This document shows, piece by piece, positions 17,411-63,070 of a DNA stretch of 64,000 nucleotides (position 1 is the stretch's first letter; every line of letters starts with the position of its first letter). The notes below the pieces were generated by a model. It saw nothing but the letters and a program-made list of their open reading frames with translations, did no database searches and was not told the DNA's origin. A program made the translations under genes and the position numbers. Where the stretch lies: assembly GCA_964366415.1 (NCBI GenBank), contig CAYITG010000001.1, positions 650,195 to 714,194 on the forward strand, written 5' to 3'. The DNA comes from Candidatus Woesearchaeota archaeon (GTDB lineage Archaea; Nanobdellota; Nanobdellia; SCGC-AAA011-G17; UBA489).

Positions 17411-20029
17411 ATGGAAACAGCTACAACTTTGGAACAGCGAAAACAGAAGCTTCTCTCTTTTTTTACTCAGAGAAAAAATCTTTTAGTTTACGTTGGCTTA
17501 TTTTTCATTCTTCTTTTAAGTTATATCATGCGTATACGTAACTTGCCCCTCTTGAAAGATGTGACGACTGGAAATTATATTCCTGTAGAACTTGATTCTT
17601 TTGCTTTCTTACGTTATGCACAATATATTCTAGAACATGGGCATATTATGGATTTTGATCTTATGCGTTATTATCCTAATGGATATTATCCTGCAAATGA
17701 ATTTTCTTTTGTTTCCCATTTTATTGTGTGGTTGTATAAATTTTTGCACATGTTTAATTCCAACCTCACTTTAGAGTATGTAGATGCTATTTATCCACCT
17801 CTCGCTTTTGTTGTTGGATTAATTTTCTTTTTCCTTCTTGTTCGCCGCCTTTTTGACTGGCGTGTTGCTCTTTTGGGTAGCGCATTCCTTGCCGTTATTC
17901 CTCCCTATATCTATCGCACTATGGCAGGATTTTCTGATAAGGAAGCATTAGGAATGATGTTTTTCTTTGTATCCTTGTATTTATTCACTGCTTCTTGGCA
18001 AACATCTTCTCTCAAAAAATCCCTCTCTCTTGCTGCTCTTTCAGGGATTATGACTGCACTTATGGCACTCTCTTGGGGGGGAGTTTACTTTGTTTTTCTT
18101 ACTATAGGACTCTATGCCCTTTATATGGTTGTTTTTGACTATTTTACTCCAAAAGAATATTATGATTATGCCACGTGGTGTATTTTTTCTATTCTTTTCT
18201 CGACGGTTGTTTTTACCACTAGATTTACTCTTTCCGGAGCGTTTAATTCCCTCCTCTTTATTCCTTTAAACTTGGCTCTTGTTGTCGGATTCTTTCGCTA
18301 TCTTATTTTACGTTATAACTTCTTTAATCTGCAACACCGCTTCCAAAAATTCTTTCCCTTAGGCATTACTACTGCGATCATCTCTTCACTTCTTATTTTA
18401 CTTCTTTTTGTCTCTACACATGGTTTCCAAAGTCTTTTTTACCGCGTACAAGATTTTATCACGAGCATTTTAACACCTTACGCTGCTAGCCGTTGGGGTG
18501 TTACTGTAGCTGAGAGCCATCAACCTTACATTAGCGATTGGTTTTCTCAATTTGGCAATTTTTATTTTTGGACATTCCTGATTGGCGTTTTACTTTTTGT
18601 TTTTTACACTTTTATTGTACGACTTAAACATCGCCTCCTTATCACTTCCGGATATGTCATTTTTCTTGTTTTCTTCCTCATGAGCAGATACTCTTCTCAA
18701 CCTCCATTTGATGGTGTTTCATCTTTAGCACGCCTTTTCTATTTTGGTTCTCTTCTCTTTTTTGTAGCCGGACTTCTTTTTATTTATTGGTACAGCTATA
18801 AACATCATAAGGAGTTATACTCTCAACTCTTTTCTTTGAAAAAAGAATATATCTTTGTTTTTGTATGGCTTTTTGTTCAACTTGTCACTGCACGCCTTGC
18901 TATTCGACTCCTTTTTGTTTTTGCTCCTCTTACTGCAATTATTGTAGCATTTCTTTATGTTAAAATCTATGATCTTTCTCGTTCCATCCCTTCAACCTTT
19001 GCTCGTTACGCTTTTGTCCTCGCTGTCGTTTATCTCTTATTTTCTCCTTTTGTTTCTATAAGCCTGGTTTCTTATTACCAACAAGATTTACGAACAGTGG
19101 GTTATAGTGGGCCGGCATATACTCAACAATGGCAAATTGCTATGGACTGGGTGAGAAAGAACACTCCTGAGGATGCCGTATTCGCTCATTGGTGGGACTA
19201 TGGATACTGGGTTCAGGGCGGCGGACAACGAGCCACGCTTACTGATGGTGGAAACTCAGGAGGTCCGGCATTAAATCATTTTATGGGGCGTAATGTTATT
19301 ACTGGAGCTAACTCAACAGAGGCCCTTGAATTCTTGAAAGTAAAGAAAGCAACACATCTCTTGATTATTTCTGATGAAATCGGCAAGTACGGCGCTTTTT
19401 CAAGCATCGGCTCTAACCAGACTTATGACCGTTTTTCTGTCATTCCCACTTTTACTCTTTCTCCATCAGAAAGTAAGGAACAACGTGATCAAACACTTTT
19501 TGTCTATCGTGGTTCTGCCGCATTTGATGAAGACATTTACTTTGATGGACAACTGTTCCCTGCACGCAGCTCAGGCATTGCTGCCATTATGGTTCCTATC
19601 TCTGTCAAAGATAACCGCACCAGCATCCAGCAACCTCGAGCAGTTGTTGTTTACCAAAATCAACAATATTCTATTCCTCTGAAATGTGTTTTTGTGGACC
19701 GCAAAGAAATCGTTTTCCCTGAACCAGGGATACGAGCATGCCTCCAGATTATTCCTGCTATCGAAGGAAATTCTGTCAATGTTCTTGGGGGAGGATTATA
19801 TCTTTCACAAAAAGTTTGGAACACACTCTTTACCCACATGTACCTCTTCGACCAGAAATGGGAAGGATTTACTTTAGCCTATACTGACGAACAATCTGTG
19901 CCTCTTGCCTTATATAATGGTCGAACTTTTGGGCCTCTTAAAATTTGGAGCATTACTTATCCTGATTCTATTCCCTATAACCCTCATTATGAAGAACTTG
20001 AATTAGATGCTTCTTTATCTTTAGTTTGA
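17411..20029 (+). CDS. aglB: oligosaccharyltransferase AglB (STT3 family)
   Basis: The N-terminal ~13 TM region is followed by a soluble C-terminal domain carrying the catalytic WWDYGYW motif. The start was moved to the internal ATG (METATT...) to avoid overlap with the upstream gene. Confidence 0.85.
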   Translation: METATTLEQRKQKLLSFFTQRKNLLVYVGLFFILLLSYIMRIRNLPLLKDVTTGNYIPVELDSFAFLRYAQYILEHGHIMDFDLMRYYPNGYYPANEFSFVSHFIVWLYKFLHMFNSNLTLEYVDAIYPPLAFVVGLIFFFLLVRRLFDWRVALLGSAFLAVIPPYIYRTMAGFSDKEALGMMFFFVSLYLFTASWQTSSLKKSLSLAALSGIMTALMALSWGGVYFVFLTIGLYALYMVVFDYFTPKEYYDYATWCIFSILFSTVVFTTRFTLSGAFNSLLFIPLNLALVVGFFRYLILRYNFFNLQHRFQKFFPLGITTAIISSLLILLLFVSTHGFQSLFYRVQDFITSILTPYAASRWGVTVAESHQPYISDWFSQFGNFYFWTFLIGVLLFVFYTFIVRLKHRLLITSGYVIFLVFFLMSRYSSQPPFDGVSSLARLFYFGSLLFFVAGLLFIYWYSYKHHKELYSQLFSLKKEYIFVFVWLFVQLVTARLAIRLLFVFAPLTAIIVAFLYVKIYDLSRSIPSTFARYAFVLAVVYLLFSPFVSISLVSYYQQDLRTVGYSGPAYTQQWQIAMDWVRKNTPEDAVFAHWWDYGYWVQGGGQRATLTDGGNSGGPALNHFMGRNVITGANSTEALEFLKVKKATHLLIISDEIGKYGAFSSIGSNQTYDRFSVIPTFTLSPSESKEQRDQTLFVYRGSAAFDEDIYFDGQLFPARSSGIAAIMVPISVKDNRTSIQQPRAVVVYQNQQYSIPLKCVFVDRKEIVFPEPGIRACLQIIPAIEGNSVNVLGGGLYLSQKVWNTLFTHMYLFDQKWEGFTLAYTDEQSVPLALYNGRTFGPLKIWSITYPDSIPYNPHYEELELDASLSLV

Positions 20030-20863
20030 CTTCTGAGCTATCACGTATAGTTCGTCGTAAAAATTACACGACATGCTTATTTTCATGAAGCTTGCCGGAA
20101 CAATTTTTTCTAATACTCTCATTTCTTTCCACACTCTCTGGCCCTTTTGAATAATTGTTCCCATCTTCCTCCATCTTCCTATATGCTTCATCTCTTTTAT
20201 TACAAACCCTTCACTTTCTAGCACTTTTCTTAATGTTTTTCTTGAAAAATATATAAGATGTTCATTTGGCTTGAAGTGTGGCCACCTTTTTTTTAGAACT
20301 TTAGCAGCATAACTGCCAACATCTGGAGTTACGATAAAGATTATTCCTTGAGGTTTTACTACTCTTTTTACTTGTTGTAATAATTCTTGCGGATTATGAA
20401 CGTGCTCAATCAAATCATTCATGATAACAGCATCAAAAAAATTTTTTTGAAATTTTACTTTTGCTACTGTTCCCTTGAAGAATTTTATACCTTTTTTGAG
20501 GCATTCTTTTTTAACTCCCTCATTAATGTCGATGCCATATGTTTTCCAACCAGATTCTTTAGCAACCTCAAGAAATGTTCCTATATTGCACCCTATGTCC
20601 AATATCTTTCCTTTTTCTGCATATTTTTCTATTATTTGTAACCTTTTTTGGAATGTAATATAATCTTCCTCTTTTGTTTCCTTATAATACACGCTCGGAG
20701 ATATTACCTCAGCATTATACAATCTTTGACTTTCTTTTACTGTTAGACGTGGATTGACATATACCAGTGAACATCTCTTGCACTTGACTACATCAAAACT
20801 TTCTTTATTGAATAGTATTTTATCGTCTCTTTCCTTGCATAAAGGACAGGCTGTTTCTTCCAT
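20021..20863 (-). CDS. class I SAM-dependent methyltransferase with an N-terminal zinc ribbon
   Basis: The N-terminus has CPLC...CKRC. Motif I is ILDIGCNIGTF, followed by the acidic motif II. Confidence 0.75.
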   Translation of the reverse strand: MEETACPLCKERDDKILFNKESFDVVKCKRCSLVYVNPRLTVKESQRLYNAEVISPSVYYKETKEEDYITFQKRLQIIEKYAEKGKILDIGCNIGTFLEVAKESGWKTYGIDINEGVKKECLKKGIKFFKGTVAKVKFQKNFFDAVIMNDLIEHVHNPQELLQQVKRVVKPQGIIFIVTPDVGSYAAKVLKKRWPHFKPNEHLIYFSRKTLRKVLESEGFVIKEMKHIGRWRKMGTIIQKGQRVWKEMRVLEKIVPASFMKISMSCNFYDELYVIAQKSN

Positions 20864-20921
20864 TTTCTTTCTTAACTCCTTCTTGGCGTTAATATTATAA
20901 AGCTTCCTTATTTTTTATATC

Positions 20922-21659: not shown

Positions 21660-21730
21660 GAGCAAATTTTTTTCTCTTAATTTTTTATGACGCAATCTTT
21701 ATTAAGGACTAATCAGACTTCCTTATTTCT

Positions 21731-23299: not shown

Positions 23300-23353
23300 T
23301 AAATCCCTTCTTCTACGAAACCTTTAAAAGTTTCTTTCTTTGATGCCTTTCTT

Positions 23354-24772: not shown

Positions 24773-24848
24773 CTGAACCTCCTTCTTCTTTCTTTTGAAA
24801 TGTTTTTATTGGTAACCTTTATAAAACTCTTTTAAACCTCTCTTCTCT

Positions 24849-26447
24849 ATGGGCAACCTCAAACACTTTTTTTATGAACATCGCATTTTTTTCTTTTTGT
24901 TACTTCTTGCCCTCATTTTACGCCTCATTTTCCTTCCTTATGCAAAATTTGAGAATGAAACTGCTCGCGACCTTGTTCTTGCCAATGAAATGATAGATCA
25001 TCATAATCTCCGCCTAAAGGGACTTTCCCCGGAAGTTGATCCCGGTTCTCTACAACAATCTTTTGGGCCCATCTTTTATTACTTCTTAGCATTTTCTCAG
25101 TTTATTTTTAGGCATCCTTATTCTGCAGTGGTTCTCATCACTCTCTTTACTCTCTTAGGGATTTTCCTTTTTTATCTCTTTGTCGATCGTTACTACGGAC
25201 GAAAAGCCGCCATTCTTTCTGCAGCATTCTTTTCCTTCAATCCCTGGATTTTTGCTTTTGTTTCCTTGAATTTTGCAAATCCGAGTTTCCTTCTTCCTTT
25301 TGTTATTCTCCTTTATTTTTCACTTCATAAAATTATTATTGATCATCAAGACGCCTACCTTATCTTAACTGCTGTTTCTCTTGCCTCGCTTTTACAGTTT
25401 CATCTATCTTCTTTGCTTCTTTTACCCATTGTCTTTCTTTTTTTGATTCTTTTCCGTCCTTCTCTTTTTCTTAGCAAATATTTTTTCCTTGCTTTAATTG
25501 TTGGATTATTATTCTTTATCCCTTACATCATTTATACTTTGCAGCATGATTCTCTTGCACGAACATTAGATTTTGTTTTTACTTCACGTTATGAAGCAAC
25601 ACGTTTCGAAAACTTTCGTGATTCTGTTAGTATTCCTTTTATGTTGGCAACAACGTATCTTGGCCCTTACCTTCTTGGCTCTTTTCACATTTTCAATAAT
25701 ACCTTTTTTGAATACTTCTTCCTTTTTTTAGATCTTGTTATCTCTTCTTTTATTGGCTTAAGCATCCTTTTTATTCTTCGTACACTTTTTTCGCGACCTT
25801 TTTTTACACGAGACCATCTTAAAGCATTTTTACTCCTTGGATGGTTCCTTTTCCCCATTATTCTTGCTATTATTCCTGGAACTAATGTTTCGCCGCACTA
25901 TTTATTCATCACTTATCCTTCACAATTTCTTCTTCTTGCTCTTTTTTTCCTTCGCCCCTCTTTTTCAAAATATCTTCGTTTTTCCTTTATCGCCCTCACA
26001 CTTCTTGCTTATATTATCTATAATATCTCTTTTTATATTTCCATTATTGCTTATGGGGGAACAGACGGCATCTATGGAATTCCCCTCCAGAGCAAAATTA
26101 ATGTCCTCACTTATGTTAACGCTGCACAACCACAAGGTACTTTGCTTTTCTATGGTTATGTGAAACCAGAGTATGAGTACTTGCAACCTTACTATGCACA
26201 GCATATCACTCTTGATGTTATTGATCATTATACAAAGAACATGACTGGCTACATCCTTCTTGACTTTTATAGCAGAGGCAACTTTGCTGAACGGAATATG
26301 ACTCATGAAGAACGCGCTTTTTACCAAAATCTTCCTTCTGTTCATGTAGGACATATCCGACTTGTTTCTCTTGAAGATTATGCATCTGTGATATCCATAG
26401 ATAACTTTAAAAGGACATCTCTTAGGCAATCTTTAGATGATTTATGA
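24849..26447 (+). CDS. GT-C fold membrane glycosyltransferase (ArnT/PMT-like, family 39/83-like)
   Basis: It is 532 aa with >10 TM segments. An acidic ENETARD motif sits in the first external loop. Confidence 0.45.
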   Translation: MGNLKHFFYEHRIFFFLLLLALILRLIFLPYAKFENETARDLVLANEMIDHHNLRLKGLSPEVDPGSLQQSFGPIFYYFLAFSQFIFRHPYSAVVLITLFTLLGIFLFYLFVDRYYGRKAAILSAAFFSFNPWIFAFVSLNFANPSFLLPFVILLYFSLHKIIIDHQDAYLILTAVSLASLLQFHLSSLLLLPIVFLFLILFRPSLFLSKYFFLALIVGLLFFIPYIIYTLQHDSLARTLDFVFTSRYEATRFENFRDSVSIPFMLATTYLGPYLLGSFHIFNNTFFEYFFLFLDLVISSFIGLSILFILRTLFSRPFFTRDHLKAFLLLGWFLFPIILAIIPGTNVSPHYLFITYPSQFLLLALFFLRPSFSKYLRFSFIALTLLAYIIYNISFYISIIAYGGTDGIYGIPLQSKINVLTYVNAAQPQGTLLFYGYVKPEYEYLQPYYAQHITLDVIDHYTKNMTGYILLDFYSRGNFAERNMTHEERAFYQNLPSVHVGHIRLVSLEDYASVISIDNFKRTSLRQSLDDL

Positions 26448-27448
26448 AACGTTCTCTTGTGCAATATCTGATCTGTCCTGTTTGTAAACACGAATCCCTT
26501 CGTCTTCATCCTTTTATTCATCATAAAGATGACACTCAAGAGGGTATTCTTCTTTGCGCATCGTGCAATCAATGGTATCTTATTGATGATTATATCTTAG
26601 AGATTTTACCACTTAATCTGAACATTCCAAGAAGAAAACAATTCTATCAAAAAAATATCCACTATTTCAAAGATCTTCATCTTCGTGAGTCTTCATTATC
26701 TCATTCTGATCATGCTACCCTTGAAAAAATTAAACAATCTACTTTTTTCGATGATTTCTCTGGCCACTATGTTCTTGAAACTCAAACCTTTTGGAGAGTT
26801 TATTATGAACGCACGCTTCATTTCTTTCAACGCACTCTTGGAAGGAAAAGCTTTATTCTTGATATTGGATGCGGCAATGGACTTGGCTCTGCTTCGCTTT
26901 TACAAGATCATACTGTGATTGGCGTTGATATCTCCCGCAGTATGGTTAAGAATGCTCTCAAACGACTTGCTGCGCAACCACACTCTCTAAGCACTTACCT
27001 TATTGCTGATGCTGAGAACTTGCCTTTCAAGAAAAATATTTTTGATGCTTGCATAGGCTTTGGCATCTTACATCATGTTGTTCATCCAGACACTTGTATT
27101 GGAGAAATTTCCCGCACTCTGAAAAAAGGTGGATCTTACTATGGACATGAAAATAACAAAACTGTTTTTCGTCCTTTTTTTGATTTTTTGATGAAAATCT
27201 TCACCTTGTGGTCAGAGGAAGCAGGTGAGCATCAACTTCTTTCTTCTGATGAACTTCGCCTCTTATGCAAACGCTATGGTTTGGCTGTAGATATACACAC
27301 TTGTATTTTCCTTCCTCCCCATATTTTTAATTTCCTTGATTATTCCTTTGCTAGAAAACTTATGGACTGGAGCGACAACCTTTTTCATTCTTTCCCCTGG
27401 TTACGACAGCAGGGCGGAACTCTTGTTTTTCGTGCGCGCAAATATTAA
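26444..27448 (+). CDS. SAM-dependent methyltransferase with an N-terminal Trm112-like zinc-ribbon domain
   Basis: It has CPVC...CASC (Trm112/UPF0434-like) and a motif I ILDIGCGNGLGS. Confidence 0.7.
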   Translation: MKRSLVQYLICPVCKHESLRLHPFIHHKDDTQEGILLCASCNQWYLIDDYILEILPLNLNIPRRKQFYQKNIHYFKDLHLRESSLSHSDHATLEKIKQSTFFDDFSGHYVLETQTFWRVYYERTLHFFQRTLGRKSFILDIGCGNGLGSASLLQDHTVIGVDISRSMVKNALKRLAAQPHSLSTYLIADAENLPFKKNIFDACIGFGILHHVVHPDTCIGEISRTLKKGGSYYGHENNKTVFRPFFDFLMKIFTLWSEEAGEHQLLSSDELRLLCKRYGLAVDIHTCIFLPPHIFNFLDYSFARKLMDWSDNLFHSFPWLRQQGGTLVFRARKY

Positions 27449-28974: not shown

Positions 28975-29026
28975 TTCTTTTCCTTTATTCGAAATCCTTT
29001 TATATACTTTGTTTACGCCTTTTATT

Positions 29027-30031: not shown

Positions 30032-30032
30032 T

Positions 30033-51620: not shown

Positions 51621-51644
51621 CCTTCAAAAATTTTTTAAATGAGT

Positions 51645-53171
51645 TTAAATGCTTTGCCCCATTGAATGTTCAATACTCTTTTTTGGATCTGTGCGATCAT
51701 GCCTCTGCAGCCCGTATCTGGTGCGTATTTTATCATCAATTTCTTGACGTAATTCAAGGAAATCTTGTGCGCTCACCTTTTCTGTTCTAACATATACTAC
51801 ATTCTCGCCGGGAGCTGTTTTGTATGGTGCTGTCTCTCTTGCAAAATCAATGGCACGCACATATAATTCTCCTTCTCCTAAAACGCGTTGGAATTCATCA
51901 CTATGCTTTCCTCTATTTGGCCTCAGACCATCATACACGCGCGATCCTGGATAGGGGGTTAAAATTGTCAAATCGAAATCCCACTTCATGTTATACTGTT
52001 GTGCAAGTTTTCCTAATCTTTCGAGGAATTTTTCTGTCATGCGAATATCGTCTACTGTTTCTGTTGGTTGCCCCATCATTGTCAACGCTTTCATTTCTAT
52101 TCCATGCTCAAAAGCCAATTTTGTAGCTTGATAGTTAATCTCTGCCGTTGTATTCTTTTTCACGTAATCTTTCAGTATTCTATCTGATCCACTTTCGAAA
52201 CCTGAGAGCACAATATGAAACCCGGCACGCTTCATCGCAGGCGCAACTTCCGGATGCCTCACAAAAAGTTCCGATTTAATAAATCCCCTATATGAGAATG
52301 GCCTCTCATCTTTTGCCATTCTTTCTTTGTTATTTCTCTCAAGAACTTCCAACAATTCCATTGTTGCTCTTGCGTCTAAGTTTAGTTCATCATCATAAAA
52401 CATGAATCCTGTTACCGAAGGAAATTTTTCATTAATGTGGTTTAGCTCTGCGACAACTCTTTCAGGGCTATATGCACGCCTTCTTCCCGTCGTTTTACTT
52501 TTTACGAAACGGTATTGAGGAATATTTCTCCCAGAACAAAAATTACAGTTAAAGGGACAACCGCGCTGAGATAGGATGCTTGTAGCTGGACCGCCATCAA
52601 TATCAAATTTTGGAGACCCATCGTCTTTGAATAAATAAGCTTGCATATCGATAAGCTCACGTGGCAAGAAAGGAAGCTTATCAAGATCATCGAATGTTCC
52701 AGAATATACCCACCTTGAGGACTGAGGTTTATTTAATCTCTTTAATGCTTCAAAGATTCCTAATTCTTCTCCTTCAATGATCTGGTCGAATATCTCCAAA
52801 GAATGGAAATTTGCATCACCTTCATATAACTCACTTTCTTTCACCATAGACTCTAATCTTCTTTTTCTTAGACTTGCAAACATTGTTGCATGCGGACCAC
52901 CAATCACTACATTGGCATGCGGATGCACTGCTTTAATTGATGAAAGTATACTTACTGCGTAACTAAACTGCGGAGATGTTGCTGTAATTCCATAAATATC
53001 AAAATTTTGTTGCGCAATTTGTTGCGCTTTGGTTTCATAGTCTCCATACCCTGCCAAATCAAAAAGCTTTACTTCATGCCCTGCTTTTTGCGCTATTCCT
53101 GCAATACTTAGCAGACCGAGTGAGAAAAATACTTTATCATCTGTAAGAAAAAATGACGGCGGATTAATCAA
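51645..53171 (-). CDS. B12-binding domain radical SAM protein
   Basis: An N-terminal B12-binding-like domain is followed by GCPFNCNFCSG (Cx3Cx2C). Confidence 0.8.
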   Translation of the reverse strand: MINPPSFFLTDDKVFFSLGLLSIAGIAQKAGHEVKLFDLAGYGDYETKAQQIAQQNFDIYGITATSPQFSYAVSILSSIKAVHPHANVVIGGPHATMFASLRKRRLESMVKESELYEGDANFHSLEIFDQIIEGEELGIFEALKRLNKPQSSRWVYSGTFDDLDKLPFLPRELIDMQAYLFKDDGSPKFDIDGGPATSILSQRGCPFNCNFCSGRNIPQYRFVKSKTTGRRRAYSPERVVAELNHINEKFPSVTGFMFYDDELNLDARATMELLEVLERNNKERMAKDERPFSYRGFIKSELFVRHPEVAPAMKRAGFHIVLSGFESGSDRILKDYVKKNTTAEINYQATKLAFEHGIEMKALTMMGQPTETVDDIRMTEKFLERLGKLAQQYNMKWDFDLTILTPYPGSRVYDGLRPNRGKHSDEFQRVLGEGELYVRAIDFARETAPYKTAPGENVVYVRTEKVSAQDFLELRQEIDDKIRTRYGLQRHDRTDPKKSIEHSMGQSI

Positions 53172-53338
53172 CGCAATTTTCTTTGGTCCATCTTCTATAC
53201 TCTCACGTATTGCGCGCTCAAGTTTGCTTTCCTCGTCCGTAGTTGATATGATAGAAATAATCTCGCCTTCCTCTTTTCGCCCCCATTTTTTGGTTTATAT
53301 GAAATGTTGATCTGTAACATATACTTTCTAGTATACTG

Positions 53339-54706
53339 TTATTTTTTTGTTGTCAAACCGCGCTTTAGAAGGTAATCAATGACTTTTATGTCAAGGAACC
53401 TGTCTGTTCGTGTGCCGACAAAAGGAATTGCTTTTCTCATTAAAGCTGCATAAAAGTCATTATATGCAGAAAATTGTTTCCTTTTATCAAATACATACTT
53501 TTTTTTACTTTGCACATACATCGCCTCTACACTTTCATTATATGTGCCATCTGCGCATTTTATTTCGCAAGGGAATTTTCCTTCCTCTTCCAGGATTGTT
53601 ACTTTTGAAGGAAGGAGCTCTGACAATAATCTTAATACTTTATCGTTCCATCCTACCACAGGAAGAATGTCTCGCCAACATGGTTTTCCTATGTACGTTT
53701 GATCCTTGTTTTTAAGATTCATTCCATAACTTGTCATGAATCCACCTGTTGGCAGTTGGTGACGAATTAACCATTGTATATCTCTCTCAACTATCTTTTT
53801 CTCCCCGAGCAAGAAAAGCGCACGAGTAATATCGGCGCTTCCTGCAATAAATATAGGATACTTAAAACGTTTCCATCCTTTCTCCGTCTTCAAATAACCA
53901 AAATCATATCCTCCTTTTGCATTACGCATCTTCTTCAAAAATACTCCTGCTTGCTGAGCTGCTCTTAGATACTTCTTATCTTTTGTTATAGCATAGACTT
54001 TTAGTAATGCAGGAATGCATCTTGCTGTATAGATGCTGATGATATGCTTGTGCTTTTCTGTTTGATAAATGCCTCCGGCCATTGTTGTTGTGTCTTGATG
54101 CTGAAGGATATACTCTGCATTTGCAATAACTACCTCATAATATTTCTGTTCTTTGGTAAGATCATATATCATTAATAATAACTCTATGAGTGTCGCAATC
54201 TTGTTTGGAACATGAAGATTTTGTTTGTCATAATGATACTGACGGAAGATTCCTGTTTTTTTGTCATAAAGAAAATTAAAATGGTAGTTATCGAGATTCT
54301 TCTTTGCCGCCAGAAGATATTTTGTTCCTTTTTCCCTTAGGTATCTTGCCAGATATGCTAGTCCTAAGGCTGCGGCTGTATCATGCGGTGTGCTGCCTCT
54401 TCCGAGAGATGGATTCGCTTCAAAGTGTGAGTTGAGGAAGATACCATTCGACAATTGATTCTTCAGAAGATCATCTCCTGCTTGCTGAGCTAGCGCAAGG
54501 AACTTGTCATTCTTTGTTTTTTTGTGTAGTCTGAGAAATGCGTCTATTAACCCTTCATAACACCAGTTCATGCTTGGGCCGGTATAATTAAGACAATCTT
54601 GCCAGTAATGGATGACTGGCCCTGCATATCCTCCTGGTTGATGCATCGTTTTCAACCACGCTACATTTTTTGCTATAGCATCTTTGAGGGCAGTTTTTTT
54701 CTTCAT
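53339..54706 (-). CDS. hypothetical protein with QxxxGG(F/Y) repeats (alpha/alpha-toroid, prenyltransferase/terpene-cyclase-like)
   Basis: Repeated motifs include QPGGYAGP, QLSNGIF, TMAGGIYQ, NAKGGYDFG and QLPTGGFMTSYG. It has no signal peptide. Confidence 0.35.
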   Translation of the reverse strand: MKKKTALKDAIAKNVAWLKTMHQPGGYAGPVIHYWQDCLNYTGPSMNWCYEGLIDAFLRLHKKTKNDKFLALAQQAGDDLLKNQLSNGIFLNSHFEANPSLGRGSTPHDTAAALGLAYLARYLREKGTKYLLAAKKNLDNYHFNFLYDKKTGIFRQYHYDKQNLHVPNKIATLIELLLMIYDLTKEQKYYEVVIANAEYILQHQDTTTMAGGIYQTEKHKHIISIYTARCIPALLKVYAITKDKKYLRAAQQAGVFLKKMRNAKGGYDFGYLKTEKGWKRFKYPIFIAGSADITRALFLLGEKKIVERDIQWLIRHQLPTGGFMTSYGMNLKNKDQTYIGKPCWRDILPVVGWNDKVLRLLSELLPSKVTILEEEGKFPCEIKCADGTYNESVEAMYVQSKKKYVFDKRKQFSAYNDFYAALMRKAIPFVGTRTDRFLDIKVIDYLLKRGLTTKK

Positions 54707-54763
54707 TTCATGATAGTAAATCTAACAAAAGGCTTATAAAAATTTGCTTCCCTCTTCTTTTCT

Positions 54764-56884
54764 ATGAAACAGGTTTTCCGCGATCGACGGGGTAAAGTCA
54801 AAATTGAGGATCTTCCACCACCCTCATTACAAGAAGGAAGAGTCTTAGTGAAAACACATTATTCACTTATCAGCAGCGGAACTGAAACGCGGTCTCTTCG
54901 CGACTCACAACGCGGAGGCGTTGTTGAACATGCTGTGAAGAAGCGTAAACAAGTACGCGCTTTCCTTGGACATTCTTTACGCGTTGACCCTGCTTATGCA
55001 TATCGTCTCTTTAAGGGAAAAGCCCATGAGCTAGCAACGTTAGGTTATAGTTGTGTAGGAGAAGTTATTGACAAGGATCCTGCTCTGAGCGATATCAACA
55101 AAGGCGATCTTGTTGTGTGTGGCGGATACGAATATGCACACCATGCCGATATTGTTTCTGTTCCACGTAATCTTGTCTATCCTGTCCCTGCTGGTGTTGA
55201 TCTTAAAGAAGCTACATTTTCTCCTCTTGGAGGAATAGCACTACATGCCATTCGAAGAGCACAACTTTCTCTCGGTGAAAGCGTGCTTGTTGTAGGGCTG
55301 GGATTAATCGGACAATTGGCAATCCAACTTTTGCGCCTGCAGGGATGCACTGTAGTAGGCATTGATCCTTCTGCAGCGAAAACAAAAATCTCTCATGCTT
55401 TTGGGGCTAAAACCTACACTGCAAAAAAAGATTTTGCATCTTCTGTTCTTGCCTTGAATGGTGGACCTTTCGATGTTGCTCTTTTGTGCACGAAGATTGA
55501 TGATCCTGCGAACCTTGATGAAATTATTGATGTTGTTCGCAACAAAGGAAAGCTTGTTGCAATAGGAGACTTATTAGTGCCTTACCCTTTCTCGAAACTT
55601 GTGAGAAAAGAAATTGACATTTTAGTTTCTCGCTCCCATGGTCCTGGACGTTTTGACAAAGAATATGAAGAAAAAGGCAAAATTTATCCTCTTGAACATG
55701 TACGCTGGACAAGCGATAGAAACATCAATGAGATCCTTCATTTACTTAAAGAAAAGAAACTTTCTGTTCGTGAACTTATCAGCGCAGAGTTTGATATGAC
55801 TCAAGCAGAAAAAGCATATTCTTTGTTGATGAAACGACCAGATACTATTGGTGTTGTGCTTGCTTATGAAAAGAATAATCCTACACAAACAATGTATCCC
55901 GTCCTTCCGATCACTAAGAAGAAAGGAACTTTGGGCGTTGCTTTGGCTGGATTGGGTGCACATGCTCAAACTGTTTTATTACCTTATATTATGAAAGAAC
56001 CATCATTTTCTCTTCAGAATGTTGTGAGCTCAAATGGGCTCAGAGCTAAACAACTTGCCACTCTTTTCAAGGCGCGATCTTGCACTACTCGTTTTGCAGA
56101 TGCACTCACTGATCCAGAAGTTGACCTTGTTTTTATTTCCACGAAGAACAAACAACATGCAGAGATGACTGTTCAAGCTGCTGAAGCTGGAAAACATATT
56201 TATCTAGAAAAACCTATGGCCCTTACTGAAGAAGAATGCGAACGTATTGTCGATGCCGTGAAGAAACACAACATCATTTTTACTCTTGGGTTGAGTAGGC
56301 GCTTCGCTCCTCTTGTTGAAAAAGCAAAATCTTTGATGCTAGAACATCAACCTGCTGCTATTAATTATCATCTTGTTGAACAGAAGAAACAGGAAAAAGA
56401 GTGGGTTGATGAAGAGGGAGGGAGAATTGTTTACATGTTTTGCCATCTTATTGATGTAGCAACCTATCTTCTTGGCAGTGAACCAACTTCTATTTATGCA
56501 ACACGGGGACAGACCCAAGATAGTGTTGTTGCTCTTGTGACTTATGAGAATGGTTCTCTTTTAAATATTTTTTATCATATCTCTGCAGCACCATTTCATA
56601 AAGAACACATCGAGATTCATCAGGGAGACACTTCTCTTTTTATTACTGATTTTAAAGATCTTCTCATTCATGCTGGAAACAAGCAACACTCTTTATCTCT
56701 TAAACAGGCTGATAAAGGGCATACCAACCAACTCCGTGAGTTTGCTAAAGTATTGCAAGGTCAACCTGCTCCTCTTGTTACTCTGAACGACGCTGTCCGC
56801 GCAACTCTTTTCCCTTTTTATGTGATCAAAAGCCTTCATACAGGTAAGCTAGTTTCTTTTGATTGGAAACAATTTTTGAAGTGA
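54764..56884 (+). CDS. bi-domain oxidoreductase (N-terminal MDR/zinc-dehydrogenase-like plus C-terminal Gfo/Idh/MocA-like)
   Basis: The N-terminus has SLISSGTETRSL and a Rossmann motif VLVVGLGLIGQLAIQLL. The C-terminal half has LGVALAGLGAHAQTVLLPYI and ...DLVFISTKNKQHAEM. Confidence 0.7.
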   Translation: MKQVFRDRRGKVKIEDLPPPSLQEGRVLVKTHYSLISSGTETRSLRDSQRGGVVEHAVKKRKQVRAFLGHSLRVDPAYAYRLFKGKAHELATLGYSCVGEVIDKDPALSDINKGDLVVCGGYEYAHHADIVSVPRNLVYPVPAGVDLKEATFSPLGGIALHAIRRAQLSLGESVLVVGLGLIGQLAIQLLRLQGCTVVGIDPSAAKTKISHAFGAKTYTAKKDFASSVLALNGGPFDVALLCTKIDDPANLDEIIDVVRNKGKLVAIGDLLVPYPFSKLVRKEIDILVSRSHGPGRFDKEYEEKGKIYPLEHVRWTSDRNINEILHLLKEKKLSVRELISAEFDMTQAEKAYSLLMKRPDTIGVVLAYEKNNPTQTMYPVLPITKKKGTLGVALAGLGAHAQTVLLPYIMKEPSFSLQNVVSSNGLRAKQLATLFKARSCTTRFADALTDPEVDLVFISTKNKQHAEMTVQAAEAGKHIYLEKPMALTEEECERIVDAVKKHNIIFTLGLSRRFAPLVEKAKSLMLEHQPAAINYHLVEQKKQEKEWVDEEGGRIVYMFCHLIDVATYLLGSEPTSIYATRGQTQDSVVALVTYENGSLLNIFYHISAAPFHKEHIEIHQGDTSLFITDFKDLLIHAGNKQHSLSLKQADKGHTNQLREFAKVLQGQPAPLVTLNDAVRATLFPFYVIKSLHTGKLVSFDWKQFLK

Positions 56885-59108: not shown

Positions 59109-59134
59109 ATAGGATTTCTTGTTTTTAGTCATCT

Positions 59135-60178
59135 ATGAAACAAATAGTCAGAGTAGGAAATGCCATTGCTATTCGCGATGTACCCATTCCTCACGCTTCG
59201 CCAGGATTTATTGTAGTACGAAATTCCTATTCTTTAATCAGTACTGGTACAGAAACGAGATCTTTACGAAACTCTTCTGCTTTAGTTAAAGGCATCACAA
59301 CCATATCCAGAAAGATTTTTGCACCTCAGAAAGCATATGCTAATCTTGGATACACCTGTGCAGGTGTCATAGAAGAGATTGGAGAGGGCGTACATGGATT
59401 TGCTCTTGGTGATCGTGTTTTGTGTGTTGGCTTTGATTATGCAGTTCATGCCGAAATTGTAAAAGTCCCTGCTCCTTTAGTTTTCCATCTTCCGCAGACT
59501 ATTTCTTTTACTCATGCTCCTTTTGCTGCCCTAGGAAGTGTGGCGCTACATGCTCTTCGCAGAAGCAATATCGCTTTTGGTGAAAAAGCCCTCGTGATAG
59601 GATTGGGACTTACTGGACAACTCTTAGTCAGACTTTTACTGCTTAATGGCTGCTCTGTTATTGGTGTTGATCCTAATGATTATAAGATTACATTAGCGCA
59701 AAAAGCTGGCGGAGAGTATATTAAAGGAAAACGTGACTTTGCTCAAACTGTTCTGGATAAAACAGGACATGGTGTTGATGTTGCTTTTGTGTGCACCGAT
59801 ATGCACGACAACGAAAATCTTGAGGAAATTATGACTACGATACGTGATAGAGGAAAACTTGTTGCTGTAGCTAACATCACTTGTTCTTTGCCCTTCCCAC
59901 TTTTTTTTCGTAAGGAACTTGACCTTATTGTATCGCGATCCTTTGGCCCTGGACGTTTTGACAAAGAATATGAGGAAAAAGGCATTGATTATCCTTTAGG
60001 ATATGTGAGATGGACTGAACGGAGAAACATCGAAGAAGTTCTTCGTCTTCTTGGCGAGCAGAAACTTGTTGTTGATCCTTTGATCAGTGCAGAGTATCCT
60101 ATCCAACATGCTCAACAAGCATATCATTCCCTGCTTGGAAGAACTAGGCCCGTGGCGCTATTATTAAAATATTCTTAG
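59135..60178 (+). CDS. MDR (zinc-binding alcohol dehydrogenase-like) oxidoreductase, paralog of the N-terminal half of 54764..56884
   Basis: The N-terminus SYSLISTGTETRSL and the Rossmann motif LVIGLGLTGQLLVRLL are shared with the bi-domain enzyme. The C-terminus has RSFGPGRFDKEYEEKG, as in its paralog. Confidence 0.7.
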   Translation: MKQIVRVGNAIAIRDVPIPHASPGFIVVRNSYSLISTGTETRSLRNSSALVKGITTISRKIFAPQKAYANLGYTCAGVIEEIGEGVHGFALGDRVLCVGFDYAVHAEIVKVPAPLVFHLPQTISFTHAPFAALGSVALHALRRSNIAFGEKALVIGLGLTGQLLVRLLLLNGCSVIGVDPNDYKITLAQKAGGEYIKGKRDFAQTVLDKTGHGVDVAFVCTDMHDNENLEEIMTTIRDRGKLVAVANITCSLPFPLFFRKELDLIVSRSFGPGRFDKEYEEKGIDYPLGYVRWTERRNIEEVLRLLGEQKLVVDPLISAEYPIQHAQQAYHSLLGRTRPVALLLKYS

Positions 60179-61791
60179 CTGCTTTCTATAAGGCTTTTTA
60201 TGTTTGGCACTGTCTGTATTGTTTCTGGAGATTTTTCGATTGCTTCTTCGTGAATATGACCATCATGTGCTTTGAGTTTGATCATTGTTTTTCTGTAAAG
60301 ACGAAGACCATGGTTCTTTGCAAGACGCGTCATGAAAAATGGAAGTAATGATAATCCTTTCAGCTTCTTCGTTGCGCTTGATGAGAGTTTCCATCCTTTG
60401 TTTAATTCTTCAAGAAACATTTTCAAATCTTTCTTCGATTTAATAGTGAAATGGTAAGGAGTATAATCATTTTTGAACAGATAAAAATAATCCCCCTTAT
60501 CTTGAAGATCAAATAATCTTCCTAATGCAAACCTCATGATAAATCTACGCGAGTATTCTCGCATATCTTTCTCTGGGAGATTGCTGTTTTGGAATCTTGG
60601 CACAGGAAAGCCGCTAAAGTTACGCTTATCTGCCTGCGCCCATGAGAAATCTTTTGGGATATACCCTTGAAGGATTGCCATATCGTACAGTGCTGTGCCA
60701 GGTATAGCATCGGTGAGCGTGAATGTGACTGCATCTCCTCGTAACTGGAAAGCCAGATCAAATGTTTCTTGAAGTGTTTCTTTAGTTTCACCAGGATGTC
60801 CAATCATAAAAAAGGTTCCTACTCCTATGCCTGCTTCTTTTGCCAATTTAATGGCATTAATCACCATAGATTTCACAATGCCTTTGCTGATAGTTTTCAT
60901 GAGCCCCTCATTTCCTGTTTCTATTCCAAATTCAATCAGCCTGCATCCTGTGCGTTTCATGATGGCAAGGATATCTTTGTCTACCAGATTAACACGAGTA
61001 AGGCATTCCCATTCGACGTTAAGTTTTCTCCTTTCCATCTCCAACATCACTGCCTTTGCCCATTCTTTGTCTGCCGTGAAGACGTCATCTTTCATGTGAA
61101 TTACTTTTTTTCCATACCTTGTGACCAACAATTCTATCTCGTCAACTACTTTTATCGGATCTCGCGTGCGTAATTTTCTTTTCCAAAATTGAGGTGATCC
61201 ACAGAAATTACAGCTATATGGGCATCCTCTTGTCCCCATGATTCCATAATATCTATATTGTGCTGTTGGAAAGAGATCATATGCTGGCATAGGGATATTT
61301 GTAATATCCATGAATTCACGATCTGGATTGCACACGATATTTCCTTTCTTGTCTCTATATGACACTCCTTTCACATTGTTTAGACTTTTTCCCTTTTCAA
61401 ATTGCCCTATAATTTCGGCCATTGTTTCTTCTGCTTCTCCTCGTACAATGAGATCAATCCAGGGAATATGCTGCAATGTGTCCTTATCCATGAATGTTGT
61501 GTGCTGGCCTCCAAAAATTACATATGCGCCGGTTTCTTTTGCCATCTTAGCGAGGTCAAATCCATCAAAACGGTTGTAACTGAACGCAGAAATGCACACT
61601 ATATCTGGCTTTTTTGCTTTTAATGCGTTTTCTGCTTCTTGTTTGGTTAATTTCAATACGTCTAAATCAAACACTTCTTGCTCAATATCCGGATAGCGCT
61701 CTTTCAAATAACTTGCAATAAACCCTATCCCCAAAGGTGGTTCATACATTTCTCCTGAAAGGAACGGACGCATATAGATAACTTTCATCAT
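60175..61791 (-). CDS. B12-binding domain radical SAM protein
   Basis: An N-terminal B12-binding-like domain is followed by GCPYSCNFCGS (Cx3Cx2C). Confidence 0.8.
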   Translation of the reverse strand: MMKVIYMRPFLSGEMYEPPLGIGFIASYLKERYPDIEQEVFDLDVLKLTKQEAENALKAKKPDIVCISAFSYNRFDGFDLAKMAKETGAYVIFGGQHTTFMDKDTLQHIPWIDLIVRGEAEETMAEIIGQFEKGKSLNNVKGVSYRDKKGNIVCNPDREFMDITNIPMPAYDLFPTAQYRYYGIMGTRGCPYSCNFCGSPQFWKRKLRTRDPIKVVDEIELLVTRYGKKVIHMKDDVFTADKEWAKAVMLEMERRKLNVEWECLTRVNLVDKDILAIMKRTGCRLIEFGIETGNEGLMKTISKGIVKSMVINAIKLAKEAGIGVGTFFMIGHPGETKETLQETFDLAFQLRGDAVTFTLTDAIPGTALYDMAILQGYIPKDFSWAQADKRNFSGFPVPRFQNSNLPEKDMREYSRRFIMRFALGRLFDLQDKGDYFYLFKNDYTPYHFTIKSKKDLKMFLEELNKGWKLSSSATKKLKGLSLLPFFMTRLAKNHGLRLYRKTMIKLKAHDGHIHEEAIEKSPETIQTVPNIKSLIESS

Positions 61792-61861
61792 AGTAACTTG
61801 CTATTAACCTCTTTTATATCTTTTCCTTTTATGGCTTTTTTGGGAAAATGTTTAAAAGCTT

Positions 61862-63070
61862 ATGCCTAAAAGAAGAGATATGCGCGTCTGTATCCTTACT
61901 ACATCGTTTCCCGCACATAAGGACGATATTCGAAGTCCCTTCATTTTAGAATTATGCAAGGCTCTGAGACAGCACGATGTCGGGGTAGATGTTATTGCTC
62001 CGCGATATTCCCATTCTTCTTCTGAAGATGTCATTGATGGAATTCACATTCATCGTTTTTCTTATTTTATACCTTCTTCTCTGCAAGTATTAACTGAGGG
62101 AGGAGGCATTCCATCTGCCCTCAAAAGATCGTGGCTAGCAAAATTACAGTTTCCTTTATTTTACCTTTCTTTTTTGATGAAAGCTTTGAGGCACGCCAAA
62201 CAATGTGAGGTCATTCATTGCCAATGGTCTTTCTCTGCGTTGGTTGGTCTTGTGTTAAAAATAGCTTATAGAAAACCCTTAGTGATGACTGAACGTGGAG
62301 CATCAGCACATCTCGCAATGGGAAATTGGTTGATGAGGTATGTTTTGTCTTTTGTAGCAAAACGCTGTGATTTTGTAACGGCGAATAGCATACAACAAGC
62401 CTCCTTGTTTGTTGACTTGGGTGTTCCTCGACATAAGGTAGCTACTATCCTGAATGGAATTGACACCATGCGTTATCGACCTTTACCAAAAACAACAAGC
62501 AGGAATGCATTGAATCTCTTACAAAAAAATAAAATAGTACTTTTTGTTGGCTGGCTTATCGAACGAAAGAACGTCAAATCACTGATTGAAGCCATGAAGA
62601 TTATTACAAAAAAACATAACGATGCCTTTTGCGTTCTTGTTGGTGAAGGAGAGCGGAGACATTCTCTTGAGGCACTGGTAAAAAAGAATAAACTAGAACA
62701 CGTTGTATCTTTTGTTGGAAGCGTGCCGCCAGCAAAAATTCCTTTGTATATGAGTGCTGCTGATGTCTTTGTATTACCTTCTCTTTCTGAGGGAAAGCCT
62801 AATGTGGTTGCTGAAGCAATGGCTTGCGGTGTGCCTGTTGTTGCTACTAATGTCGCTGGAACAAAAGAGATTGTCCATCATGGGAAAAATGGATTGCTTG
62901 TACATGTGAATAATGATGCTGAACTTGCAGCAGCTATCGTGAAAGTACTCTATCATAAAAAACTTGCCAAGACACTTTCTCAACAGGGGTTACGAACCAT
63001 ACAGAATGCTGCACTCACGTGGAAAACCTGCGCTAAGAAATATCTTGATATTTACCAAAAAATTTTGTGA
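61862..63070 (+). CDS. GT4 glycosyltransferase
   Basis: The C-terminus has SEGKPNVVAEAMACGVPVVATNVAGTKEIV. The N-terminus MRVCILTTSFP is typical. Confidence 0.8.
   Translation: MPKRRDMRVCILTTSFPAHKDDIRSPFILELCKALRQHDVGVDVIAPRYSHSSSEDVIDGIHIHRFSYFIPSSLQVLTEGGGIPSALKRSWLAKLQFPLFYLSFLMKALRHAKQCEVIHCQWSFSALVGLVLKIAYRKPLVMTERGASAHLAMGNWLMRYVLSFVAKRCDFVTANSIQQASLFVDLGVPRHKVATILNGIDTMRYRPLPKTTSRNALNLLQKNKIVLFVGWLIERKNVKSLIEAMKIITKKHNDAFCVLVGEGERRHSLEALVKKNKLEHVVSFVGSVPPAKIPLYMSAADVFVLPSLSEGKPNVVAEAMACGVPVVATNVAGTKEIVHHGKNGLLVHVNNDAELAAAIVKVLYHKKLAKTLSQQGLRTIQNAALTWKTCAKKYLDIYQKIL

Follow-up and report, generated by a model that had tools for sequence, protein, structure and literature searches.

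A probable AglB-anchored N-glycosylation super-cluster with a conserved core and exchangeable modules in a groundwater woesearchaeon

Gene content of the AglB locus

The sequence analysed here, a 64-kb stretch of contig CAYITG010000001.1 (assembly GCA_964366415.1, positions 650,195–714,194, forward strand) to which we refer throughout as the window, contains a gene for the oligosaccharyltransferase AglB followed by a long run of glycan-related genes. The host is a woesearchaeon (DPANN) with a small genome from Hainich groundwater, an assignment that follows from the relatives of its AglB, which at 36–61% identity are DPANN proteins. AglB has 590 confirmed relatives in reference genomes (those listed being DPANN metagenome-assembled genomes (MAGs), mostly Woesearchaeota) and 178 protein-database homologues, the homologues belonging for the most part to Woesearchaeota or Nanoarchaeia; its best match among the GTDB representatives searched was 46% identical. 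A six-frame listing of open reading frames (ORFs) and a Pfam scan of each gene gave 55 genes in the window. Genes 1–11 (11–12,368) are surface-protein genes, including that of an S-layer protein (7958–10639; PF05124). Genes 12–17 (12,564–17,409) form a housekeeping block encoding an AI-2E transporter, a retropepsin-like protease, RimK, an M15 dipeptidase, diphthine–ammonia ligase (Dph) and SpoIIM.

From 17,411 to 63,070 lie 37 genes (97.5% coding), every one of which belongs to a glycan-pathway family or is a plausible tailoring gene. Besides AglB and one AglH/MraY-family initiating transferase, they encode 13 Leloir-type glycosyltransferases (seven GT2, three GT4, three GT9), three GT-C-type membrane enzymes (two PMT_2 and one PTPS_related), two Wzx flippases, three methyltransferases, one carbamoyltransferase, four oxidoreductases, one GHMP kinase and one NTP_transferase. 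Glycosyltransferases of all types thus account for 18 of these 37 genes and for none of the 17 upstream (Fisher p = 3e-4). The Pfam scan therefore reproduces, at the same coordinates, the AglB-anchored glycosylation island of a preliminary description, including its seven GT2, three GT4 and three GT9 enzymes, two flippases, methyltransferases, carbamoyltransferase, oxidoreductases and sugar-activation genes. Four genes for B12-binding radical S-adenosylmethionine (SAM) enzymes, two for alpha/alpha-toroid proteins and one for a NUDT22-like Nudix protein had been missed in that description. The genes, with lengths in amino acids (aa) and numbers of predicted transmembrane helices (TM), are as follows.

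17411–20029, +: AglB/STT3 oligosaccharyltransferase, 872 aa, ~14 TM; PF02516 E 2.4e-19; WWDYG at residue 594
20021–20863, −: SAM-dependent methyltransferase, class I; PF13489 E 4.9e-29; same position in L091, 52% aa identity
20922–21659, +: DPM1/ArnC-like GT2, 245 aa, soluble; candidate dolichyl phosphate (Dol-P)-sugar synthase 1; PF00535
21731–23299, +: B12-binding radical SAM enzyme, 522 aa; PF02310 and PF04055; CxxxCxxC; 77% aa identity in L091
23354–24772, +: B12-binding radical SAM enzyme, 472 aa; PF02310 and PF04055; 78% aa identity in L091
24849–26447, +: GT-C membrane glycosyltransferase, PMT_2 family, 532 aa, ~10 TM; PF13231 E 1.2e-10
26444–27448, +: SAM-dependent methyltransferase with Trm112p-like N-terminal zinc ribbon; PF08241 E 1.3e-21, PF03966 E 7.5e-5
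27445–28974, −: PTPS_related polytopic membrane protein, 509 aa, ~9 TM; probable GT-C; PF10131 29.9 bits (cut-off 26.4)
29027–30031, +: AglH/WecA/MraY-family polyprenyl-phosphate sugar-1-phosphate transferase, 334 aa; PF00953 E 3.3e-33
30033–31301, +: Wzx-type flippase 1, 422 aa; PF01943 E 1.2e-15; in conserved AglH–Wzx–GT2 triplet
31298–32062, +: DPM1/AglJ-like GT2, 254 aa; candidate Dol-P-sugar synthase 2, core gene; PF00535; in 43/80 related loci
32098–33858, +: NodU/CmcH-family O-carbamoyltransferase, 586 aa; PF16861 E 3.5e-56, PF02543 E 9.7e-41
33859–34914, +: GT9 glycosyltransferase; PF01075 E 1.9e-27; heptosyltransferase II model 106 bits (cut-off 134.6)
34911–35702, +: GT2, 263 aa, one C-terminal TM, elongating type; PF00535 E 1.7e-25; MftF/EpsD/PglI-like, sub-threshold
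35674–37239, −: GT-C membrane glycosyltransferase, PMT_2 family, 521 aa, ~10 TM; PF13231 E 2.9e-16; homologues in 13/80 loci
37307–38362, −: GT2, 351 aa, no TM, upstream of and co-directional with the PMT_2 gene; PF13641 E 9.5e-20
38446–39345, +: GT9 glycosyltransferase; PF01075 E 5.9e-15; 47% homologue in L095
39331–40443, −: GT9 glycosyltransferase; PF01075 E 8.6e-38; 51% homologue in L095
40522–41703, +: GT4 glycosyltransferase; PF00534 E 4.7e-24
41728–42459, +: DPM1/AglJ-like GT2, 243 aa; candidate Dol-P-sugar synthase 3 or Dol-P-linked initiating enzyme; PF00535 E 3.8e-25
42456–43487, −: short-chain dehydrogenase/reductase (SDR) epimerase/reductase, RmlD-like; PF01370, PF04321
43484–44467, −: Gfo/Idh/MocA oxidoreductase; PF01408
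44519–45349, +: SAM-dependent methyltransferase; PF08241 E 2.1e-23
45346–46848, +: Wzx-type flippase 2, 500 aa; PF01943 and PF13440, E ~2e-17
46891–47817, +: GT2, 308 aa, tandem pair member 1; PF00535 E 9.2e-34
47861–48820, +: GT2, 319 aa, tandem pair member 2; PF00535 E 7.3e-26
48867–49880, +: galactokinase-like GHMP sugar-1-kinase; PF00288, PF10509; galactokinase models sub-threshold
49883–50848, +: NUDT22-like two-domain Nudix protein, 321 aa; probable nucleoside diphosphate (NDP)-hexose pyrophosphatase (predicted from a fold match)
50814–51620, −: sugar-1-phosphate nucleotidyltransferase; PF00483 E 3.7e-26
51645–53171, −: B12-binding radical SAM enzyme, 508 aa, most divergent of the four; PF04055, PF02310; 71% homologue at the same position in L094
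53339–54706, −: alpha/alpha-toroid protein, 455 aa; weak Pectate_lyase_2, GH127, LanC and GH76 matches; conserved in L094, L095
54764–56884, +: bi-domain oxidoreductase, Zn-dependent alcohol dehydrogenase (Zn-ADH) fused to Gfo/Idh/MocA, 706 aa; PF00107, PF01408
56884–57942, +: second alpha/alpha-toroid protein, ~352 aa; weak Pec_lyase match; conserved after the bi-domain gene in L094, L095, L100
57939–59108, +: GT4 glycosyltransferase; PF13692 E 6.3e-28
59135–60178, +: Zn-dependent alcohol-dehydrogenase-family reductase; PF00107
60175–61791, −: B12-binding radical SAM enzyme, 538 aa; PF04055 E 1.3e-25, PF02310; homologues in L094, L095, L099, L100
61862–63070, +: GT4 glycosyltransferase; PF00534 E 7.6e-46
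63071–63469, −: DUF4346 pterin-binding-domain protein, not a glycan gene; PF14251
63501–64000, +: LPG_synthase_TM membrane protein, N-terminal part (341 aa); identical contigs L084/L085

The end of the island, placed at 63,070 in the preliminary description, did not hold. Two contigs from Hainich groundwater assemblies, L084 and L085, are 100% identical to the end of the window and carry at least 10 kb more of glycan genes: the LPG_synthase_TM protein, a PglF-like dehydratase, a 478-aa membrane protein, a SPASM radical SAM protein, a sugar formyltransferase, an FdtA ketoisomerase, a second NUDT22-like protein, a haloacid dehalogenase (HAD)-type phosphatase, a fourth PMT_2 protein and a methyltransferase. 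The cluster therefore spans at least 56 kb, and both this figure and the count of 47 genes are lower bounds. The same continuation rules out the DUF4346 gene at 63071 as a right-hand backbone border of the island. This gene adjoins AglB or SpoIIM in six related loci (L006, L046, L060, L064, L065 and L067) and lies 43 kb downstream of AglB in the window, where it represents a gene of the backbone enclosed by the cluster. Assuming a genome of close to 1 Mb, like those of other Woesearchaeota MAGs (PMC11606122), the cluster would occupy about 5% of it; of the 756-kb contig that carries AglB it takes up at most 7.4%.

Conserved core and cassette turnover among relatives

For comparison we used 80 species-level AglB loci with 10 kb of flanking sequence on each side. 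An upstream backbone recurs among them, running from the S-layer gene through AI-2E, the protease, RimK, Dph and SpoIIM to AglB; the S-layer gene is syntenic in L006 (63% identity), and SpoIIM adjoins AglB in 36 of the 80. An AglH gene occurs within 10 kb of AglB in 39 loci (median identity 56%); in most cases Wzx and a DPM1-like GT2 come next. AglB, the AglH-type transferase, the Wzx flippase and the DPM1-like GT2 constitute the core that is conserved in the lineage. In 18 loci AglB and AglH stand side by side, and in 16 others an insert of 0.4–9.4 kb separates them; these 16 inserts contain a DPM1-like GT2 (11 cases), a GT-C gene (seven), a B12-binding radical SAM gene (six) or a methyltransferase (six). 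In the window, the initiating transferase gene lies 9 kb downstream of AglB.

Close relatives illustrate how the content of the site changes. L091, whose AglB is 56% identical, keeps the exact order of the 20–30 kb region of the window, with radical SAM proteins at 77–78% identity, above that of AglB. In L092 the flanks are 80–88% identical and enclose a different AglB–AglH cassette, consisting of an epimerase, a DPM1-like GT2, one B12-binding radical SAM protein and a small ferredoxin. The whole 48.8–61.8 kb block is kept in L094, and in L095 the same modules are permuted, with the carbamoyltransferase again after the core triplet and the modules still linked to AglB or AglH. For most genes of the 33–63 kb region, the 10-kb flanks of AglB in the 80 relatives contain no counterpart. 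At the strain level, L087 (1–2202), a contig from another sample, is 98.9% identical to L085 over 2.4 kb (LPG_synthase_TM, DUF4346, GT4); beyond this it carries unrelated genes, for a toroid protein and a hexapeptide acyltransferase, in place of the PglF-like dehydratase of the window strain, so that this junction is a strain-level replacement breakpoint.

These comparisons document cassette-like turnover at a conserved chromosomal site. The earlier suggestion of a hypervariable glycosylation locus is upheld, with cassettes swapped between close relatives and strains and modules permuted; within the 10-kb flanks the position of the site is conserved, and relatives differ in that genes are replaced or permuted, not in whether the site is occupied. 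Module-wise rebuilding of this kind, between relatives as well as between strains, would be expected of a surface structure on which hosts or viruses impose diversifying selection. DPANN archaea are generally considered to live attached to hosts, and their surface glycans likely shape that contact. AglB itself is 56–61% identical to its closest relatives, compared with 74–88% for SpoIIM, Dph, AglH and Wzx and 77–78% for two radical SAM proteins (L091, L092).

Proposed pathway and its alternatives

Most probably, the locus is an AglB-anchored N-glycosylation super-cluster of at least 56 kb and at least 47 genes, composed of a conserved core and exchangeable modules. Loci of this kind are already known; this one is notable for its size, its shuffled modules and its four B12-binding radical SAM genes. 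From the observed gene families, their order, conservation and variability we propose a pathway in which the substrates, the order of steps, the protein targets and every enzymatic activity are predictions. The AglH-type enzyme would prime dolichyl phosphate at the cytoplasmic face, and soluble or peripheral GT2, GT4 and GT9 enzymes would extend the glycan from NDP-sugars; these could be supplied in part through the galactokinase-like kinase and the nucleotidyltransferase, with the NUDT22-like hydrolase probably checking the supply. Methyltransferases, the carbamoyltransferase, oxidoreductases and B12-binding radical SAM enzymes may tailor the sugars, after which a Wzx flippase would translocate the lipid-linked glycan. 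Three DPM1/ArnC-like GT2s could make Dol-P-monosaccharides for use by GT-C enzymes (PMT_2, PTPS_related) on the outer face, following the logic of AglD/AglS or ArnC/ArnT. Finally, AglB would move the glycan to asparagine residues of surface proteins, for which the nearby S-layer protein is the obvious candidate.

The three putative Dol-P-sugar synthases are the short soluble GT2s at 20922, 31298 and 41728. Searched against the PDB, their joint profile ranked the Pyrococcus furiosus Dol-P-mannose synthase (5mlz) first (E 5e-30), with ArnC at ~4e-17 and GtrB at 7e-14, which bears out the earlier description of three GT2s as DPM1/GtrB-like. In NCBIfam all three gave sub-threshold matches: 20922 to Dol-P-hexose transferase, PgfS and ArnC, 31298 to PgfS, AglJ, PpgS and ArnC, and 41728 to AglJ, PpgS and Dol-P-hexose transferase. 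The remaining four GT2s belong to the elongating type (MftF/EpsD/PglI or PgaC). That the synthases sit alongside three or four GT-C enzymes holds in part: three face three in number, and DPM1-like GT2 and GT-C genes co-occur across the related loci (per locus, p = 0.018), but adjacency is loose. Sequence searches of the PDB returned nothing useful for the GT-C proteins. The PTPS_related family profile aligns to PMT_2 over the N-terminal 200 residues, including a conserved loop aspartate (hhalign 78.6%, E 1.7e-5), and this profile–profile link makes its assignment as a probable GT-C reasonable; homologues occur near AglB in 18 of the 80 relatives. No GtrA or ArnE/F-type small flippase is present in the locus; as judged from their families, the second Wzx and the LPG_synthase_TM protein are candidate flippases for lipid-linked monosaccharides.

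The tandem GT2s (46891–47817 and 47861–48820) are 86% identical overall and 100% identical over residues 78–286, with a 300-nt stretch at 96% DNA identity; their N-terminal 77 residues, the nucleotide-sugar-binding part, have diverged (DDGSTD in one, DGKSTD in the other). The pattern suggests that the genes were recently duplicated or underwent gene conversion, their divergence being confined to the donor-binding end.

Turning to sugar supply, the protein encoded at 49883–50848 gave no Pfam, NCBIfam or PDB sequence match, and only 12 homologues were found, all named ones from DPANN. It conserves a Nudix-box-like motif, EEFxEExGI, and an AlphaFold2 (AF2) model built from 11 usable homologues (predicted local distance difference test (pLDDT) 80.9, predicted template modelling score (pTM) 0.80) returned human NUDT22 as all six of its best PDB matches in Foldseek (E 1e-9 to 8.5e-11, template modelling score 0.51–0.57). 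Human NUDT22, a UDP-glucose/galactose hydrolase, converts UDP-glucose to glucose-1-phosphate and UMP (PMC10101856); it shares the two-domain Nudix fold with the archaeal protein, at only 18–20% identity. The model suggests that the protein is probably an NDP-hexose pyrophosphatase. Each of the four loci that were examined (the window, L088/L089, L090 and L094), two of them with housekeeping surroundings, has an NTP_transferase gene beside it; outside the window, members of the family lie at L088 608–1579, L090 8001–8999 and L085 2635–3507. The second NUDT22-like protein just past the window, beside the HAD hydrolase, shares the motif PPAGY...EFEEEIGL with the first. A GDP- or ADP-heptose pathway feeding the three GT9s was considered and rejected: the GHMP kinase is galactokinase-like, HddA reached 28.6 bits against a cut-off of 600 and HddC 41 against 300, and the window contains no GmhA or GmhB.

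Among known systems, the agl cluster of Haloferax volcanii groups AglB with AglJ, AglG, AglI and AglE, followed by AglD, AglR and AglS for a mannose added after flipping. It resembles the present locus in its oligosaccharyltransferase gene flanked by pathway genes, its Wzx-like flippase candidate, its SAM methyltransferase and its pairing of a DPM1-type GT2 with a polytopic transferase for a Dol-P-sugar added after flipping, a pairing that is predicted in the window. In a second N-glycosylation cluster of Haloferax, gene content differs between close strains (PMC11407970), a variability also seen here. Compared with the Haloferax agl cluster, the woesearchaeal one, at 56 kb or more, is several times the size; it relies on an initiator of the AglH/MraY family (Dol-PP-type) and has three DPM1-like, four PMT_2-type and three GT9 enzymes, a carbamoyltransferase, four B12-binding radical SAM proteins and one SPASM radical SAM protein; no window protein reaches the halobacterial equivalog cut-offs. 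Bacterial O-antigen and capsule loci share the fixed chromosomal position with cassette-swapped content, as well as Wzx, sets of GT2 and GT4 enzymes, sugar-nucleotide genes and the combination of bi-domain oxidoreductase, toroid (heparinase II/III-like) and GT4; they differ in that the window has no Wzy, Wzz or ligase, AglB being the final transferase, the carrier presumably dolichol and the host an archaeon. The ArnC/ArnT, GtrB/GtrC and PpgS/GT-C pairs are matched by the profiles of the three short GT2s (to the Dol-P-mannose synthase, ArnC and GtrB) and by the three GT-C enzymes in number. However, the short GT2s have no C-terminal membrane helices such as those of the P. furiosus synthase, GtrB and ArnC, the window has no GtrA or ArnE/F, and two B12-binding radical SAM genes stand between the 20922 synthase and its GT-C.

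Several observations weigh against this interpretation. No island protein reaches any NCBIfam equivalog cut-off (the initiating transferase has only sub-threshold MraY-family matches), and therefore no donor, acceptor or linkage is established, including the GlcNAc-1-phosphate of the preliminary description. The GT-C genes stand only loosely beside the DPM1-like GT2s: 20922 alone lies in a co-directional run with a PMT_2 gene, and the nearest GT-C to 31298 and 41728 is 2–5 kb away. Enzymes of the PMT_2 family might just as well act in protein O-glycosylation or in lipid modification, a module of bi-domain oxidoreductase, toroid and GT4 is a typical feature of polysaccharide loci of the bacterial Wzx/Wzy type, and the right end of the cluster lies past the available sequence. 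As to targets, the S-layer protein has nine N-X-S/T sequons, not enriched over shuffling (z = 1.0), and the sequon is absent from all four pilin-like proteins encoded nearby. Of the targets named earlier, the S-layer protein remains a reasonable candidate, and the pilins do not.

A composite locus is the alternative that fares best, although we regard it as rather unlikely. Only the core (AglB, AglH, Wzx and some glycosyltransferases) would then serve N-glycosylation, the PMT_2 and DPM1-like modules would act in protein O-glycosylation or lipid glycosylation, and the second Wzx with the bi-domain, toroid and GT4 genes would make a separate surface glycan. The presence of two Wzx genes and four PMT_2-family genes is consistent with this, as is the naming of the PMT_2 family after protein O-mannosyltransferases. 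Two Wzx genes may, but need not, mean that there are two pathways for lipid-linked oligosaccharides. Near AglB in the 80 relatives, the second Wzx has no homologue and its neighbours no counterpart, and homologues of the bi-domain protein, named 'bi-domain-containing oxidoreductase' in DPANN and in many Bacteria, occur in bacterial Wzx/Wzy exopolysaccharide loci. Yet the Pfam scans found no Wzy polymerase, chain-length regulator or export gene in the window, the locus holds no second initiating phosphoglycosyltransferase, and the modules stay linked to AglB or AglH in L095 and other loci. Moreover, the second Wzx could be explained as a flippase for Dol-P-sugars, as AglR is in Haloferax. A single N-glycosylation super-cluster remains our preferred reading. 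Within the bi-domain module, the two toroids are distantly related (hhalign 93%), and a single-sequence structure model of the one at 53339–54706 was unusable (pLDDT 47.9). The stand-alone Zn-ADH gene is a paralogue of the Zn-ADH half of the bi-domain gene, the two being 78% identical over 104 nt (55607–55710 in the bi-domain gene, 59912–60015 in the other).

B12-binding radical SAM genes and base composition

All four B12-binding radical SAM proteins of the window match PF02310 (46–88 bits; cut-off 32.1) and PF04055 (67–91 bits) and contain an invariant CxxxCxxC motif. None belongs to a characterised equivalog in NCBIfam: against BchE, HpnJ, HpnR, AprD4, Mmp10-type and other models, the best scores were 62–197 bits at cut-offs of 360–775. 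The protein at 21731 is BchE/HpnJ-like below every equivalog cut-off, and those at 23354 (BchE 197 bits, HpnJ 195 bits) and 60175 (BchE 191 bits, HpnJ 179 bits) are likewise sub-threshold. The best solved relative of the four-gene profile is AprD4 (6fd2, E 2e-42).

Such genes recur near AglB: 50 B12-binding radical SAM ORFs lie within 10 kb of it in 35 of the 80 relatives, amounting to 4.2% of 1,187 ORFs, and at 30% identity or more, 53 of 54 sequences fall into one loose family. Methyltransferases (10 against 3.3 expected), GT-C genes (7 against 2.7 expected) and elongating GT2s are over-represented beside them; the neighbours left unlabelled are LPG_synthase_TM proteins, SDR epimerases, GT2s, Wzx and SPASM radical SAM genes. 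In three loci (the window, L094 and L095) one subfamily stands next to a gene of the Zn-ADH family. When metagenomes were scanned with the protein at 60175–61791, only two loci were returned. A fixed operon running from Dol-P-sugar synthase through radical SAM gene to GT-C was rejected across the relatives, with a per-locus association of the first two at p = 0.36 and heterogeneous neighbours; a DPM1-like GT2 within three genes of the radical SAM gene in 44% of cases, against a background of 24%, lends it weak support. No cobalamin riboswitch was detected, Rfam having found no RNA family. In L092, a small Fer4_15 ferredoxin gene (7634–7900) lies directly downstream of, and co-directional with, the B12-binding radical SAM gene of the alternative AglB–AglH cassette; its product is a candidate electron donor.

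Precedents for sugar chemistry exist within this architecture. HpnJ contracts the ring of a lipid-linked glucosamine, and GenK, GenD1 and Fms7 C-methylate aminoglycoside sugars (PMC9204698), while AprD4, together with the reductase AprD3, deoxygenates a sugar (PMC5461906). These enzymes share the PF02310 and PF04055 domains with the window proteins; for two of the four, HpnJ is one of the highest-scoring models (179–195 bits), far under its cut-off, and the radical SAM–reductase adjacency of AprD4/AprD3 is also conserved for one of them. The precedents differ in belonging to hopanoid or aminoglycoside biosynthesis, in contrast to the archaeal protein glycosylation of the window. AprD4 has been described as a radical SAM dehydratase distinct from cobalamin-dependent diol dehydratases (PMC5461906), and cobalamin use therefore cannot be assumed from the domain alone. 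On these grounds we infer that the B12-binding radical SAM enzymes would tailor sugars. More tentatively, the diversified family could represent a regular, as yet undescribed form of N-glycosylation tailoring in Woesearchaeales, acting on lipid-linked sugars (a Dol-P-monosaccharide or Dol-PP-glycan) or on nucleotide sugars to give C-methylated, deoxygenated or ring-rearranged products, with one subfamily paired with a Zn-ADH-type reductase for deoxygenation in the manner of AprD4/AprD3. If so, cobalamin-type radical chemistry would contribute to the surface coat of a symbiont that is genome-reduced and presumably scavenges cofactors.

It is less likely that these enzymes modify lipids, whether as ring synthases or methylases of glycerol dialkyl glycerol tetraethers (GDGTs) or on the dolichol carrier, rather than act on sugars. 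The characterised archaeal B12-binding radical SAM enzymes GrsA/B and Gmm do act on isoprenoid lipids (PMC11214058), and there are sub-threshold NCBIfam matches to lipid-biosynthesis B12-binding radical SAM, HpnR and HpnP-type models. The proximity of 50 such genes to AglB, their methyltransferase, GT-C, GT2 and Wzx neighbours, the pairing of one with a Zn-ADH-family reductase in three loci and the sugar-acting precedents HpnJ, GenK/GenD1 and AprD4 (PMC9204698, PMC5461906) all count against a role in lipids, as does the lack of any lipid-synthesis gene among the Pfam matches of the window. DPANN archaea commonly lack lipid synthesis, which also speaks against it. Tailoring of sugars remains the reading that we favour. 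When the literature was searched for radical SAM enzymes in connection with AglB, DPANN or Woesearchaeota, only the GDGT-modifying enzymes proved relevant, which makes the AglB-linked genes a lead for which no prior description was found. They are one of two testable leads from the locus, the other being the predicted archaeal family of NUDT22-like sugar-nucleotide hydrolases, missed by current domain libraries.

Regarding base composition, the guanine-plus-cytosine (GC) content is 0.412 over positions 1–10,700, 0.376 in the housekeeping block (10,701–17,410), 0.375 in the island and 0.362 past the window. For third codon positions the values are 0.296 (island), 0.327 (housekeeping genes) and 0.312 (surface genes), and for first positions 0.484 (island) and 0.516 (surface genes); these shifts are small and borderline (p = 0.03–0.07). 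Tetranucleotide usage is uniform within the island (r 0.96–0.98). The compositional outlier is thus the block of surface-protein genes, not the island. The preliminary impression that the island is richer in AT than the first 12 kb is right in relation to the first 10.7 kb but not to the adjacent housekeeping block, and neither GC along the window nor tetranucleotide usage within the island showed a deviating composition, so that AT-richness lends no support to horizontal acquisition. Recent acquisition of the island by horizontal transfer, with which its lower GC than the first 10.7 kb, its mainly bacterial families (GT9, bi-domain oxidoreductase, carbamoyltransferase) and the differing gene content of relatives would agree, is very improbable in view of its housekeeping-like GC, the small codon-position shifts, the uniform tetranucleotide usage, the absence of tRNA genes and of flanking or inverted repeats at the island and of any integrase or transposase family among the Pfam matches of the window, and the recurrence of its modules in other Woesearchaeota at 40–80% aa identity. 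Old inter-domain exchange of some modules is plausible, because the bi-domain oxidoreductase/toroid/GT4 module and the GT9s belong to mainly bacterial families.

Among the upstream surface-protein genes, that at 1827–5282 encodes a 1151-aa secreted protein with a cysteine-rich N-terminus and no Pfam match, which has a 41% homologue upstream of AglB in L018; it contains six sequons against 11.2 expected, that is, fewer. The pilin-like proteins are encoded by four consecutive small genes (5292–7707), whose predicted N-termini combine K-K-G with about 20 hydrophobic residues, resembling an archaeal type IV pilin signal; they have no Pfam match, and homologues lie upstream of AglB in L007, L018 and L028. 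Closer to AglB, a retropepsin-like/Zn_protease gene and a RimK ATP-grasp ligase gene (13663–15092) form a pair that is also adjacent upstream of AglB in at least 10 related loci, and they are followed in the window by the gene for the M15 D-Ala-D-Ala dipeptidase (15174–15725).

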